Shown here in pieces: positions 3,293 through 17,678 of a stretch of DNA of 64,000 nt. Each line of letters begins with the position of its first letter. Position 1 is the stretch's first letter. The translations under genes were made by a program, and so were the position numbers. The notes beneath the pieces were generated by a model. It saw only the letters and a program-made list of their open reading frames with translations, was not told the origin of the DNA and ran no database searches. This stretch comes from Escherichia phage vB_EcoM_RZ. The DNA is taken from the sequence record MW598459. The stretch is one strand, 5' to 3'.

Positions 3293-3322
3293 ATCATAAC
3301 TCATTTCAATCTGCTTGTACAC
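3293..3322 (-). promoter_or_regulatory. T4-type early promoter cassette (-35 GTGTAC, 17 bp, -10 TTATGAT, leader TATCCCATCAAAC)
   Basis: Minus-strand reading GTGTAC-N17-TTATGAT-TATCCCATCAAACAAAAGGAG-ATG; same architecture as the other cassettes listed. Confidence 0.5.
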
Positions 3323-3627
3323 TACTCTTTAAAAGAAATTAGCTTATTCATTGCTTTGGCAACTTCATCACGAACAGCGTGTAAATTCTTAATCTGTTCA
3401 AGACGTTGCTCATAATACGCGATTTCATCTTCTTCCAGACAGTCGTCTTTATCTTCTTTAAGATATCGAGCATAGTCCTGGAAAGCTTGACGAATCACTT
3501 CTTGAAAGTCGTCTAAGCCCTGGATTTTCTTGGGTTTTGATGTGAATCCAAACGGATTGGAATCGCTTATGCGGCGATGAGAAGCTGTTGATAACTCATA
3601 GCCAAAACCAGAATTAATCTGCGCCAT
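3322..3627 (-). CDS. hypothetical protein
   Basis: Start at MAQINSG with SD AGGA; TAATG stop/start overlap with upstream gene. Confidence 0.45.
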
Positions 3628-3905
3628 TAGTATTTTTCCTCGGGTTGGAAAACGGAACGACACGCCCACATAGAAGCTTCTTTCAGACGGTCAATTGCCG
3701 TACGAATCTGGGCAATGCGTTCATGGGTGAGGTTGAATTCTTCATCACTCATTTTATCAACACCCGAGCCTGTAAAGGCTTCAACATATTCTTCTTCTAA
3801 TGCTTTAAAGATTAAGCCCAATCGAACTTCAGCATCTTTAATAGCATTCACTTTACCGATTTTATCGTCGGTGTGTGGCTTATAACCTTTGATATCTTCA
3901 ATCAT
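3627..3905 (-). CDS. hypothetical protein
   Basis: 92-aa ORF, 4-nt overlaps with both neighbours. Confidence 0.45.
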
Positions 3906-4120
3906 TTCACTTCCTCATCAGATGCAGTATCATATTCTACCAAACGAAGGCCATCATATCCGCCACGAACAGAGATATACGTACTCGGATAAACAATTTC
4001 TTTACCATTCCATTGGCCACCGTCCCAACATTCCATAAAGCCTTGTTCGCCCTGTTCATGGAACCAGTCAACAAACAGCTTCAGAGCTTCTTCAGAACCT
4101 TCAATTGTCAATTTAGACAT
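3902..4120 (-). CDS. hypothetical protein
   Basis: 72-aa ORF in operon packing. Confidence 0.45.
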   Translation of the reverse strand: MSKLTIEGSEEALKLFVDWFHEQGEQGFMECWDGGQWNGKEIVYPSTYISVRGGYDGLRLVEYDTASDEEVK

Positions 4121-4409
4121 ATTTTTTCCAATCAGAAATCATATGAATCTCTTGGTCATAAGTCAAGAGACTACGAGTAATAATACCCTTACAAGGCCCA
4201 GAGATGAACTCGAGAGTAAAGTAAGGAACCTGTTTCATTAATCGGATACTTGGAGCATGACATCTAAAACGAGAGCCCTTAAAGGGCCCCGACATGAATA
4301 CATATTCTAATGGATAGAAATAAGCATATTCAAAATTTGTAGTAAGGTCCTCTCTTCGGACCTTACGTGAGAAATAGCAGAACTCAAAAAGTTCTTCATC
4401 AGTCATCAT
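4113..4409 (-). CDS. hypothetical protein
   Basis: 98-aa ORF in operon packing. Confidence 0.45.
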   Translation of the reverse strand: MMTDEELFEFCYFSRKVRREDLTTNFEYAYFYPLEYVFMSGPFKGSRFRCHAPSIRLMKQVPYFTLEFISGPCKGIITRSLLTYDQEIHMISDWKKYV

Positions 4410-4933
4410 TGCATTCCTATCACAAAGAACAGTGGCAGAGGTTTAGAACCTTGGCACATAAATTTATTCATCATTGTCTGATAAGCTTCATAGAACTTAT
4501 CCATCGCTGGTAGGCGAATAGGCTCTTCAATAATAATCAATAATCGGGTAACAGACAGTCCACGATATTTGTGAAAATGATCTTCATCTAAAAATGAACG
4601 AACAGTATCATATACAACAAAACCAGGTCGTTCAACATTAAGATGTGGCTGTGCTTTAGAAACCCGCTTTATTATATCACAGATTTCTCGTGAGCGATGC
4701 GAAGAACTCGACATAACAATTACATCATTACCCTTAGAAACCCAATCCGCAGCAAATTGTGCAATGGCACTTGTTTTACCTGTTTGCCTTCCGCCGTCAA
4801 GTCTAAGAGTACCAAACTCTTGCATTCTTGAAGCGGGTTCATACCAGGTGTATTGGTCTGAATCTAAGCGTTCAATGGCGCGTTCAGCGAAGGCGTGCAT
4901 TAAGGTTAGATAAATGGGAGTTAAAAATTTCAT
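4406..4933 (-). CDS. small P-loop NTPase-like protein
   Basis: 175 aa; Walker A GGRQTGKTS and Walker-B-like hydrophobic stretch LLIIIEEP. Confidence 0.5.
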   Translation of the reverse strand: MKFLTPIYLTLMHAFAERAIERLDSDQYTWYEPASRMQEFGTLRLDGGRQTGKTSAIAQFAADWVSKGNDVIVMSSSSHRSREICDIIKRVSKAQPHLNVERPGFVVYDTVRSFLDEDHFHKYRGLSVTRLLIIIEEPIRLPAMDKFYEAYQTMMNKFMCQGSKPLPLFFVIGMQ

Positions 4934-5093
4934 AGTTGCCTCTTAGTTGTGGGGCCGTTCCTTGGCACATAATTCATCCGTGTATCCGTATGTAAACCCT
5001 TTACCGCACTTGGGCTCGACCTTATTACAGGTAGGGAAAGGTCCATCACTCAGAGGACGCAACGTTCATGAGGAGAGGGTCGGCTTGCCTTTA

Positions 5094-5393
5094 TTAGAAA
5101 GAACCAGAGCCTTTAATTGTGTTCTGGCGACCTTTATTTTCTAATTCAGAATGGTCGATTTCGTATGCTTGTGCTACACCAAAGGCCTTTTTAACTTTAG
5201 CTAAAGAACCTTTAGATGTAACAATATTAAAAGTATTACCTTTGGTAAAATCAACCAAATCAACTTGTACACCCTGTTTACCGAGGCTTGCGACAATAGC
5301 ATCAACATATTGTTGGTCTAAAGTACCTTGGACTCCAATTTGGAATGCTTTAGGGGCTTTGGCTTCTGTGATAAATTCTTGATAAGTTTTCAT
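5094..5393 (-). CDS. internal-protein-like head protein with capsid-targeting sequence
   Basis: Start at internal MKTYQEFITEAK; matches the N-terminal capsid-targeting sequence of T4 internal proteins (IPI/II/III); sits next to denV/e as ipII/ipIII do in T4. Confidence 0.6.
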   Translation of the reverse strand: MKTYQEFITEAKAPKAFQIGVQGTLDQQYVDAIVASLGKQGVQVDLVDFTKGNTFNIVTSKGSLAKVKKAFGVAQAYEIDHSELENKGRQNTIKGSGSF

Positions 5394-5441
5394 TTTATAT
5401 TCCATTGTTTGGCTGATAAAATCATTATACAACCTTTTTAG

Positions 5442-5858
5442 TTAAGCGTACACAGCTTTCCCATAGTATTTGTACCAAGCAGGCTTTTGAGAAATTTTCT
5501 CATTCAGTCTGGCTTGACTGATTTCAATTGACCAGATTGATGGTTGATAATCATTCTTCCATTCATCAGGAATATCAGTTAAATCTTGGGTAGAAATATC
5601 TTTTATGTTAAACCCTCGCTTTAAACATTCCGCAATAAGTTCTTGATGCCGGTTTTTAAGGAACAAAAGCTTATCATAAAAGAAGATGACATGACCAGTC
5701 CCTAAAAGGAAAGATGATGGGATTTTAAAGTCAGAAACCTTTTTACCATTTTGTACATGCTTACGAACAGCACCAAACACGCGAGGAAGTTCACGATATT
5801 CAGCCATAAGATGTTGGTCAGCGAGTTCAGATACCAGGGTTAAATTAATGCGAGTCAT
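5442..5858 (-). CDS. denV: endonuclease V (pyrimidine-dimer DNA glycosylase)
   Basis: 138 aa; N-terminus [35 protein letters not shown] near-identical to T4 DenV. Confidence 0.95.
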
Positions 5859-5884
5859 GTTTGTTCTCCGTAGTTGATAGGGTC

Positions 5885-16441: not shown

Positions 16442-16696
16442 TTATTTTTTAGGGATACGATAGTAACGCATCTCAACATCTTTCTGCTTGTACCACTTTT
16501 TGATAAGGTCTTCAGAACCGCTAATAGTAACGATGTCATAACGACCATCATGCGATACTTCAGCACTTAACTGCATGAAATTGTCCAGTGAACGACGGAA
16601 TTCCTCATTGGAAAAACTGCCACGCGGCGAACCAACATAAGCAAACTCAACTTTTGCATTTGCAGATTCAGTAATAAATTCTTGATAAGTTTTCAT
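16442..16696 (-). CDS. internal-protein-like protein with capsid-targeting sequence
   Basis: Start at MKTYQEFITESA; own early promoter. Confidence 0.65.
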   Translation of the reverse strand: MKTYQEFITESANAKVEFAYVGSPRGSFSNEEFRRSLDNFMQLSAEVSHDGRYDIVTISGSEDLIKKWYKQKDVEMRYYRIPKK

Positions 16697-16722
16697 ATAG
16701 TCTCCAGTAGTTGATGAGATAA

Positions 16723-16752
16723 TCATACTACAGTTATCCCATCGCGTATACT
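16723..16752 (-). promoter_or_regulatory. T4-type early promoter cassette with dyad around -10
   Basis: Minus strand GTATAC-N18-TATGAT; GATGGGATAA/TTATCTCATC inverted repeat; leader CAACTACTGGAG. Confidence 0.55.
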
Positions 16753-16995
16753 TTATTTTAAGTCTTCCAGACGTTTTTTCATCTTGGTGCCGTTCTTAGC
16801 AATTTCACCCGCGTCTGAACAAAGAGCAAGGAGAGCTTTAACTTTACCCTGGTCGCCTTTAAAAGATGATGCATCTACAGAATCGGCAAGTTCTTTGATA
16901 CGTGCAAACAGGCGCTCTGCTTCAGCAAGGGCTTGACCAAGTTTAACTTCCATACCATGGGAAGATTCTGTTATAAATGTTTGATAAGTTTTCAT
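16753..16995 (-). CDS. internal-protein-like protein with capsid-targeting sequence
   Basis: N-terminus MKTYQTFITESS. Confidence 0.65.
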   Translation of the reverse strand: MKTYQTFITESSHGMEVKLGQALAEAERLFARIKELADSVDASSFKGDQGKVKALLALCSDAGEIAKNGTKMKKRLEDLK

Positions 16996-17003
16996 TTGAA
17001 GCC

Positions 17004-17276
17004 TTATTTAAGATAAATTGCATATTTTTTATAACCAGCTGTCTCATGACGGAGACCCTTGTCATTGGCAAAACGCTCAATGTTATTAATTTGGTTCTGG
17101 TCAAGTTCTGAAATGTCAAACGCGAAAAAGTTGCGTTTGTTACCAATTGTTATATGGTCAGTCAAGTCAATGCTATACAGGTGATTGATATTGTCAATCA
17201 TAGATTTGACTGCTTTACTAATTTTTACTTCTTCATTCAGTTGTGACTCGTTGAAAAATTCATTGAAAGTTTTCAT
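17004..17276 (-). CDS. internal-protein-like protein (divergent capsid-targeting sequence)
   Basis: N-terminus MKTFNEFFNESQ. Confidence 0.55.
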   Translation of the reverse strand: MKTFNEFFNESQLNEEVKISKAVKSMIDNINHLYSIDLTDHITIGNKRNFFAFDISELDQNQINNIERFANDKGLRHETAGYKKYAIYLK

Positions 17277-17284
17277 AAGAAACC

Positions 17285-17617
17285 TTATTTATAAAGTTTT
17301 GCCAGTTCTTTACGTCCACGAGCAGACATAATAAATTGTTCATCGCCAATTTTAAAATATGCCATACCACCGTCAACAGCGATACCAATTTCTTTAGTAC
17401 CTTCTTTGCCTTTCCACTTGCCACCAGATTTCAGGACAGCTTCAACTGCAGCTTTGGAATATTTGGACGTTTGAAAACGTTCATTACCAATCTGAAAGAA
17501 AACACCATCTGCATTTTTGGTTAAACCAAATTTCAGAGAGCCTTCACTATCATCAATTGATTTGGTCTCATTGATGGCGGATTCGGCTAAAAACTCGTTG
17601 TAAGTTTTGATGTTCAT
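17285..17617 (-). CDS. internal-protein-like protein (divergent capsid-targeting sequence)
   Basis: N-terminus MNIKTYNEFLAESA; lysine/glycine-rich body; own early promoter. Confidence 0.55.
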   Translation of the reverse strand: MNIKTYNEFLAESAINETKSIDDSEGSLKFGLTKNADGVFFQIGNERFQTSKYSKAAVEAVLKSGGKWKGKEGTKEIGIAVDGGMAYFKIGDEQFIMSARGRKELAKLYK

Positions 17618-17648
17618 TTTAACTCCGTTTGTTCGTTGGTGTAGGTGT

Positions 17649-17678
17649 ATAATACTGCACCTACACTCATTTGTACAC
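17649..17678 (-). promoter_or_regulatory. T4-type early promoter cassette with dyad around -10
   Basis: Minus strand GTGTAC-N18-TATTAT; inverted repeat GTGTAGGTG/CACCTACAC flanks the -10. Confidence 0.5.

Follow-up and report, generated by a model that had tools for sequence, protein, structure and literature searches.

The promoter-early stem-loop (PeSL) elements of phages RB49 and phi1 join a strong early promoter, an upstream AT-rich stretch that includes the stop codon of the preceding gene, a Shine-Dalgarno (SD) sequence and a start codon to a stem-loop that occurs in five positional classes, most commonly in the space separating the -35 box from the -10 box or over the latter (PMC2839356). 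Comeau et al. (2014) applied the same name to elements of T4/PST and nt-1/KVP40 (PMC4122927), and PMC2839356 credits Repoila et al. (1994) with analogous elements at the internal protein (IP) loci of T-even phages, in which the promoters are T4 early promoters and the stem-loops are weaker and AT-rich. Arbiol et al. call these T-even elements 'analogs', not homologs (PMC2839356). Here we describe a set of early-promoter cassettes in a 64,000-nucleotide stretch of Escherichia phage vB_EcoM_RZ (sequence record MW598459), hereafter the window. We consider it rather probable (about 60%) that these are T-even-type early-promoter cassettes of PeSL architecture, about half of which hold the -10 box in the loop of a hairpin that punctuates read-through RNA.

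The published anatomy of the PeSL is matched at this locus, as the initial annotation had proposed: the promoter, the AT-rich stretch with its stop codon, the stem-loop, the SD sequence with the start codon and the association with indels are all found. Like the PeSL, each cassette is an intergenic composite of these parts, its stem-loop often lies in the spacer that parts the -35 box from the -10 box or over the latter, G-T pairs are tolerated in the stem, and the cassettes are enriched in hyperplastic regions, where they bound gene-sized indels. However, the promoter is of the T-even type (GTGTAC/GTTTAC), whereas that of the RB49/phi1 elements is a near-consensus TTGACA; the stems are of mixed sequence (GGGATA, TAGGGT, GTAGGTG) and not polyG/polyC (GGGG..CCCC); no U-tract follows them; and crossovers fall in the shared leader, not in the stem-loop. 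The stem-loops bracket the -10 box here and at T4 ipI, but were placed immediately ahead of the promoter in the PST/T4 study. With a different -35 box and mixed stems, homology to the RB49/phi1 elements was not found and, judged by their sequences, the window cassettes are analogs, not sequence homologs, of the RB49 elements.

To the extent that PMC2839356 describes the IP-locus elements of Repoila et al., the window cassettes share with them the lineage and the loci, ip genes with an MKTYQEF leader, T4 early promoters, and stem-loops of variable size that are 'weaker, more AT-rich'; those elements were proposed to drive IP shuffling. In contrast to that description, the window cassettes also occur at denV, regB, e.6-like genes, trna.4 and ORFans. 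The cassette type is thus already documented, and our finding mainly confirms it while extending the PeSL architecture to Gaprivervirus and, with stems bracketing the -10 box, to T4 itself. What is added is quantitative evidence that the stems are under selection, namely an approximately 30-fold excess over cross-pairings and compensatory changes across genera. Short, stable intergenic hairpins without U-tracts are also known as REP/BIME-type 3' stabilisers of polycistronic bacterial mRNA, where they are thought to block 3' exonucleases. The hairpins described here resemble them in being short, stable, intergenic and free of U-tracts, but the sequences are unrelated and REP elements are not fused to promoters.

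Promoter motif and cassette anatomy

The window comes from a T4-like coliphage, Gaprivervirus (SP18/DK-13 group), with 40.6% G+C and 97% identity to Escherichia phage DK-13 over 16 kb. The minus strand of 1-20 kb is the early region, in the order tk-vs-regB-denV-ip-e-nudE-e.x-tRNA-trna.x-ip-57B-57A-1-3, the gene names being those annotated in vB_YenM_P8, JS98, DK-13, a Mosigvirus and T4. When the window was scanned with the motif T[GAT]TACN-N16-18-[TC]A[TC][AGT]AT, the minus (gene) strand gave 14 matches and the plus strand 4, for 2.7 expected per strand under a first-order Markov model; an SD sequence, an ATG and an open reading frame (ORF) of at least 40 codons follow 13 of the 14 minus-strand matches. 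A cassette is composed of an AT-rich stretch with the upstream stop, a -35 box of the form G-T(G/T/A)TAC-A, a spacer of 16-17 bp, the -10 box, a conserved unstructured leader, and the SD sequence with its ATG. The 25 nt upstream of the -35 box are 72% AT, compared with 59% in the window, and the stop codon of the upstream gene lies 0-3 nt ahead of the -35 box. Promoter and leader together fill the intergenic space, which is only about 55-60 nt long.

All eleven minus-strand sites listed by the initial annotation read as it described them. The slips concern details: two -10 boxes actually lie at 13723-13728 and 16722-16727, and the site at 13205, while present, reads GTTTTAC, that is TTTACT with a 16-bp spacer. 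Two cassettes were absent from that list. One, at 5393-5452 (-35 box 5452-5447, -10 box 5429-5424; cassette coordinates here and below are on the minus strand), stands ahead of an ip-like gene (MKTYQEFITEAK) and has only a 5-bp AT stem. The other, at 55357-55415, is weak (TTTACA-17-TAAGAT, no stem); it stands before an ORF beginning MDKVKVHF (ATG 55357), shortly downstream of hoc, which is encoded on the same strand, and overlaps an annotated 24.3-like region. The claims of coverage did not hold. Cassettes had been said to precede nearly every gene of the accessory island, and in 1-20 kb they were found at about 12 of approximately 47 minus-strand genes; nor does each ip gene carry its own, as two ip-like genes, with starts at 16995 and 17276, lack a cassette and begin 8 nt after the preceding gene.

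The same motif is found in T4 at orthologous positions, before regB, denV, e.6, e.8, trna.4 and ipI, and the JS98 and Mosigvirus orthologs bear it as well. By this orthology to T4 we infer both the promoter activity and the transcription starts of the cassettes, which host sigma-70 RNA polymerase would use immediately after infection. The commonest -35 sequence in the window is G-TGTACA, found in 7 of 13 cassettes (e.g. 3316-3321, 5908-5913, 8437-8442, 16435-16440 and 17672-17677), with TATACA and TTTAC in three each. TGTACA is a palindromic hexamer and resembles TTGACA less closely than does the GTTTAC(A) of T4, JS98 and Mosigvirus.

Hairpins around the -10 box

We scored each stem as the longest uninterrupted Watson-Crick helix that the 17 nt ahead of the -10 box can form with the 14 nt after it. 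Helices of 9 bp were found at 5885 and 17649, of 8 bp at 16413 and of 7 bp at 13205 and, when one G.T pair is allowed, of 9 bp at 16722 and of 8 bp at 8414. At random window positions with the same geometry, a helix of at least 7 bp has a probability of 0.009 and one of at least 8 bp of 0.002. The initial annotation had placed such inverted repeats at about seven of its sites; six of these carry one, the repeats measuring 7-9 bp, and the seventh, with the arm pair GGTCTAG/CTAGACC, is real as well, except that it sits at an unlisted site (16152-16128) with a decayed -35 box.

The denV cassette (5858-5913; -35 box 5913-5908, -10 TATAAT 5890-5885, ATG 5858) has the arms TGATAGGGT (5899-5891) and ACCCTATCA (5883-5875). 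Downstream of 57B and before an ip-like gene (MNIKTYNEF), the cassette at 17617-17677 (-10 TATTAT 17654-17649) has the arms GTGTAGGTG (17666-17658) and CACCTACAC (17647-17639), a stem whose counterparts in DK-13 and vB_YenM_P8 measure 11 and 7 bp, respectively. Two ip-gene cassettes follow the same plan: at 16384-16440, ATGGGATA (16429-16422) and TATCCCAT (16412-16405) flank TATAAT (16418-16413), and at 16696-16750, GATGGGATA (16743-16735) and TATCTCATC (16721-16713), with one G.T pair, flank TATGAT (16727-16722). At 13162-13232 the arms are TGGGATA (13220-13214) and TATCCCA (13204-13198) around TATAAT (13210-13205), and ten pairs, including one G-U, form when the segment is folded as RNA. The cassette of a gene for 228 aa (8386-8442; ORF 7700-8386, MNGPKTFN; -10 CACAAT 8419-8414) pairs GTGGGGC (8431-8425) with GTCCCAC (8412-8406) through one G.T pair; the stem is perfect (GTGGGAC) in vB_YenM_P8, and its RNA fold reaches -16.7 kcal/mol (z -4.9). 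Finally, the degraded cassette of the trna.4 ortholog (16104-16158; ATG 16104; leader CTATCAACTACTGAGGAG) has no properly spaced -35 box, and retains GGTCTAG (16152-16146) and CTAGACC (16134-16128) around a -10-like TATCAT. The survival of this hairpin at a degraded promoter suggests that it is maintained independently of promoter function.

In all, the window has seven sites with a stem around the -10 box, one with a stem over the -35 box, one with a stem upstream, and four to five cassettes with none. A stem around the -10 box was looked for and not found at 3293, 9434, 12677, 13723 and 52392. The stem over the -35 box belongs to an e.6-like cassette of the GATTCCATACTGAGTTAC leader family (12610-12711), where GGGGG..CCCCC (12711-12692) overlaps the -35 box (12705-12700) and not the -10 box. 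The upstream one belongs to the cassette at 13671-13811 (-10 box 13728-13723), where a canonical terminator hairpin, AGCCCGCAATGCGGGCT followed by T6 (13811-13795), precedes the -35 box. The cassette at 9405-9462 (-10 TATCAT 9439-9434) has no stem, and its leader, at 9403-9423, is an indel junction relative to vB_YenM_P8. An isolated cassette at 52350-52420 (GTTTAC -35 box, CATAAT -10 box, GATTCCATACTGAG leader), likewise without a stem around its -10 box, precedes an inserted ORF of 93 aa that separates gene 23 from gene 24.

The initial annotation had named one outcome as fatal to its proposal, that the shared leader motif should by itself account for the complementarity. When the spacers were paired with the leaders of other sites, the GGGATA/TATCCC family alone cross-paired; the stems at 5885 and 17649 proved site-specific, and the spacers of other sites gave at best a 6-bp pairing in place of the 8414 stem. 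The shared leader motif therefore does not explain the complementarity, because the stems at 5885, 17649 and 8414 are not reproduced by other sites. RNA folding gives the hairpins energies between -9.3 and -16.7 kcal/mol, with z-scores between -2.3 and -4.9. In 11 of 12 window cassettes the leader taken from +1 has almost no predicted structure (0 to -1.8 kcal/mol).

We then drew on a wider sample of 205 distinct cassettes of T4-like phages, obtained from IMG/VR by anchoring on proteins and comprising orthologous upstream regions of trna.4, denV and regB together with 20-kb loci around 57B. An exact-pattern scan of IMG/VR with a 14-nt leader, ATCAACTACTGAGG, returned at least 120 stretches, and among the 81 matches listed almost all were chance occurrences in unrelated contigs. 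In the sample of 205, stems of at least 8 bp between spacer and discriminator were found in 17% of own pairings, compared with 0.6% of cross-pairings. The excess persists in independent subsets in which both arms were forced to differ, with 2.9-4.1 stems seen for 0.4-0.6 expected (median P about 0.001); these sets were built greedily from arm differences, as whole-sequence or single-linkage clustering merged everything (shared promoter and leader). Thirty distinct arm pairs were obtained, with loops of 7-16 nt and 3' arms that all end at +1 to +6.

Stem registers differ between cassettes (offset of the 5' arm versus the 3' arm, -4 to 10), so a column-based covariation analysis over all cassettes was inapplicable and the alignment-free comparison of own with cross-pairings was used. 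In a fixed-register subset of 11 sequences, double-sided changes were found at 6 of 10 pairs, and the covariation score was 0.415, whereas shuffles gave 0.196, none of the 500 scoring as high, and slid partners 0.05-0.15; these sequences had been preselected for the helix, so that the percentage paired is biased and the covariation measures alone are informative. The excess of own over cross-pairing and the double changes bear out the earlier proposal that compensatory arm change reflects selection on structure. The point is illustrated by the trna.4 promoter, whose arms are ATAGGGT/ACCCTAT in T4, GATAGGGTA/TACCCTATC in Mosigvirus, GGGCT/AGCCC in JS98-type phages and ATGGGATA/TATCCCAT or GGTCTAG/CTAGACC in Gaprivervirus, and which in still other lineages has a helix masking the SD sequence instead of the -10 hairpin. 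The T4 ipI promoter itself has a 10-bp stem, TGATGAGGTA/TACCTCATCA, around its -10 box. The repeated motif is real and under selection, though it is not a novel type of element.

What would such a hairpin do? In about half of the cassettes a spacer segment of 7-11 nt is complementary to the discriminator/+1 region and places the -10 box in the loop. RNA from the cassette's own promoter cannot form this hairpin, because the last base of the 3' arm lies between +1 and +6; it would form only in RNA from an upstream promoter, whether read-through, polycistronic early or 'delayed-early'. The geometry is explained by the gap of about 55-60 nt, in which spacer and discriminator are the sole free positions. 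We thus read the hairpin as an intergenic RNA structure that may have been squeezed into the promoter, where it would punctuate read-through RNA, presumably as a 3'-exonuclease barrier or a weak attenuator for the upstream message, and the downstream translation start would stay open. The stems are not classical terminators, because no U-tract follows them; a canonical intrinsic terminator was accordingly rejected, the hairpin at 13811-13795 being the only one in the cassette region that qualifies.

Several points weigh against this interpretation. A U-tract is lacking after all 30 distinct stems (0-4 T in the next 8 nt), and a terminator role has been shown for one GC-rich RB49 stem-loop, whose transfer to stems without U-tracts may be doubtful. 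A comparison designed to tell sense-strand RNA from duplex DNA gave 7 G.T, 3 A.C and 7 other single mismatches in real helices, where the cross-pairings had 313, 265 and 1948; wobble pairs are enriched in the real helices, and the asymmetry between G.T and A.C is not significant. The sample contains many orthologs, with about 10-23 truly independent families. Moreover, five to six window cassettes have no stem around the -10 box, so that the hairpin is not required for a cassette. Finally, we infer promoter use and the read-through RNA at each site.

Masking helices and other readings of the hairpin

A second class of helix was found at the same promoters, in which sequence upstream of +1 (the spacer after the -35 box, or the -10 box with the discriminator) pairs with the SD/AUG region. 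In the window it is seen at regB and denV. The regB cassette (3260-3321; -35 TGTACA 3321-3316, -10 TATGAT 3298-3293, SD 3276, ATG 3265) has no stem around the -10 box; instead AGTTATGATTATC (3301-3289), comprising the -10 box and discriminator, pairs with GATAATCATGACT (3272-3260), comprising the SD-AUG spacer and the AUG. The predicted fold of its read-through RNA reaches -17.3 kcal/mol (z -4.6), compared with 0.0 kcal/mol for RNA from +1. At denV an outer stem, TCTCC (5907-5903) with the GGAGA of the SD sequence (5869-5865), encloses the -10 hairpin, and the read-through RNA folds at -21.8 kcal/mol (z -5.3). Pairing with the SD region in read-through RNA is also predicted for the spacer TCCAGA of the 13723 cassette, and pairing with the SD region for the discriminator GATTCCA of the 52392 cassette. 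Elsewhere the masking arms are CTCCTGTAG/CTACAGGAG in T4 and JS98 denV and TCTCCTCTAGTTG/CAACTAGAGGAGA in Mosigvirus regB.

The masking class comprises 45 of the 205 cassettes and 23 distinct arm pairs. Masking helices of at least 10 bp make up 12.7% of own pairings and 0.4% of cross-pairings; the test on independent subsets gives less support here (P 0.06-0.2). The predicted probability that the SD..AUG segment is unpaired is 0.77 in the primary transcript and, in read-through RNA, 0.35 for the masking class and 0.70 for the hairpin class. The two classes occur together in 2 of 205 cassettes, where 10.8 were expected (Fisher P = 2.6e-4).

The closest precedent is in T4 genes e, soc, 49 and I-TevI, where the translation start is masked in read-through RNA and a late promoter lies inside the 5' strand of the structure (PMC3014915). 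At regB, denV and many of their orthologs the arrangement is alike, with the 5' arm upstream of the nearby transcription start, the 3' arm over the SD/AUG region and a long transcript that would be silent. However, the proximal promoter of the T4 genes is late (TATAAATA) and delays expression, whereas here it is of the early type and both transcripts would be early or middle. The six to seven stems around the -10 box, to which the initial annotation had drawn attention, do not touch the SD sequence, and for them occlusion of the SD/AUG region in the long transcript was not found. In the literature searched we found no description of masking from within early promoters, and the masking class at early promoters (regB, denV, trna.4) is the new element of this analysis. 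Read-through copies of such genes would be translationally silent, so that the gene's own transcript alone would be translated. RNA structure is reported in the literature to shield GGAG from RegB, and therefore masked read-through copies would escape RegB. If confirmed, the masking arms in many early promoters of T4-like phages would bear on the long-standing distinction between immediate-early and delayed-early genes, on the escape of some GGAG sites from RegB, and on the tightness with which RegB and other toxic products are held in check.

A broader proposal, to which we give somewhat less than even odds, is that RNA structures in early promoters follow a general T4-type design rule, whereby translation depends on where the transcript starts and two exclusive classes swap at orthologous promoters. 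In the first class (ip genes, trna.4), the hairpin would be limited to the region upstream of about +5 and leave open, or even protect, the translation start in read-through RNA. In the second (regB, denV, trna.4 elsewhere), a helix from upstream of +1 to the SD/AUG region would silence read-through copies and shield GGAG from RegB. Were this true, it would widen the paradigm of e, soc, 49 and I-TevI from late to early promoters and explain the autonomous expression of shuffled cassettes wherever they are inserted.

The alternative to RNA punctuation that survives best, although we regard it as unlikely, is that the hairpin acts as an insulator, or 'anti-mask'. The G-rich 5' arm in the spacer would then be a decoy for the C-rich discriminator (CCC/CCTC, anti-SD-like) and keep the SD sequence free in read-through RNA. 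Indeed, several 5' arms are SD-like (e.g. GAGGTA, GGGATA, TAGGTG, AGGACT), and the unpaired probability of 0.70 in the hairpin class drops to 0.57 with the upstream regions of unrelated cassettes and to 0.63 when the cassette's own spacer is shuffled (P = 0.012; 31 of 47 higher). The mutual exclusion of hairpin and masking points the same way, but it may merely mean that a 17-nt spacer fits one arm. The effect is also small (0.07), the samples are non-independent, and thermodynamic prediction is its sole source.

It is less probable still that the structure acts in DNA, as a cruciform or single-strand hairpin that modulates open-complex formation or early-promoter shut-off, or that is the target of a structure-specific recombination nuclease. 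The segments do fold as DNA (-4.6 to -8.3 kcal/mol, z down to -4.6), the -10 box is exactly in the loop, and the lack of a significant G.T versus A.C asymmetry is compatible with this reading. PMC3014915 describes the shut-off of early promoters in T4 as 'not completely understood', and Arbiol et al. speculated that the stem-loop binds a recombination protein (PMC2839356). However, the stems at 8414 and 16722 need G.T pairs, which are A.C on the opposite strand, crossovers occur in the shared leader rather than in the stem, and the hairpin survives loss of the -35 box. The sister class at the same orthologous promoters, with loops of about 15-45 nt, always involves the SD/AUG region, which is sensible only in RNA. 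Furthermore, the arms are 7-11 bp long with loops of 7-16 nt, and such short arms with long loops extrude poorly as cruciforms.

There is a slim chance that the repeats are a mutational by-product, perfected by templated quasi-palindrome mutation or gene conversion with no selected function. Quasi-palindrome-templated mutation is said to be well documented in T4 by Ripley and co-workers, and the cassettes do recombine. One cassette of the sample, before an ip gene beginning MKTFK, is a chimera that combines a trna.4-type 5' arm (ATAGGGTA) with a 3' arm like that of T4 ipI (TACCTCATCA), so that the arms mismatch; it looks like a recent recombinant of two cassettes with the crossover in the -10 box. 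Against such an origin, arm sequence, position and register differ by genus at orthologous promoters such as trna.4, and the approximately 30-fold excess has been kept over deep divergence. A palindromic operator for a dimeric repressor was in practice rejected: dyad symmetry centred on the -10 box is the classic repressor-operator geometry, but the 30 distinct arm sequences fall into at least 12 unrelated families, the arms are 7-16 nt apart, and complementarity alone is conserved, with no fixed half-site.

Recombination at the cassettes and neighbouring features

The idea that the cassettes are mobile modules is supported by the position of the indel junctions relative to DK-13 or vB_YenM_P8: four of eight lie inside cassettes (5913-5918, 9403-9423, 12634-12646 in the leader of the e.6-like cassette, and 13160-13209), which make up about 5% of the sequence. 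The 13205 cassette is itself a chimera, in which the shared leader CCATACTGAGTTACCAAATAAA (13160-13209) links the promoter and hairpin of one DK-13 cassette to the SD sequence and gene of the following one; the intervening DK-13 gene is missing. The conserved promoter and leader would thus serve as a homology patch for recombination that inserts or deletes single genes. The window offers a clean case of a gene-sized indel through cassette-cassette recombination, which helps to explain the swapping of accessory genes such as those of the internal proteins.

Two tRNA genes only, Arg-TCT and Met-CAT, are present at 14974-15127, whereas T4 has eight together with rnaC/rnaD and segB. Their flanks, at 14455-14603 and 15510-15541, are replacement or indel junctions relative to DK-13 and lie outside the cassettes. 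A search of the whole window with Rfam 15 at the gathering score returned these two tRNAs as its sole matches, and the cassettes match no curated RNA family.

One bidirectional terminator-like hairpin, AAAGGGACC-N4/5-GGTCCCTTT, is present in three copies (52037-52063, 53742-53763 and 55460-55481), located after gene 23, in the interval between gene 24 and rnlB, and after hoc, so that an identical stem stands at three late-gene boundaries. An HNH-like ORF of 201 aa with a GTG start lies on the plus strand at 45336-45941, between gene 18 (tail sheath, 43289-45268) and gene 19 (46086 onward), and is probably a free-standing homing endonuclease. Ahead of it (region 45272-45941) lie a promoter of the early type, TTTACT-17-TATAAT, and a hairpin of 9 bp, TGCGCGTAT-AATATAA-ATACGCGCA, whose loop and 3' arm contain the T4 late-promoter-like TATAAATA.

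Another composite of promoter and hairpin was seen upstream of denV homologs in four contigs of jumbo-phage relatives (345-378 kb), where a -35 TTGAC lies inside a terminator hairpin with its T-tract, e.g. GGTTGAC-GAGA-GTCAGCC-TTTTTT, the stem covering the -35 box and the -10 box following.

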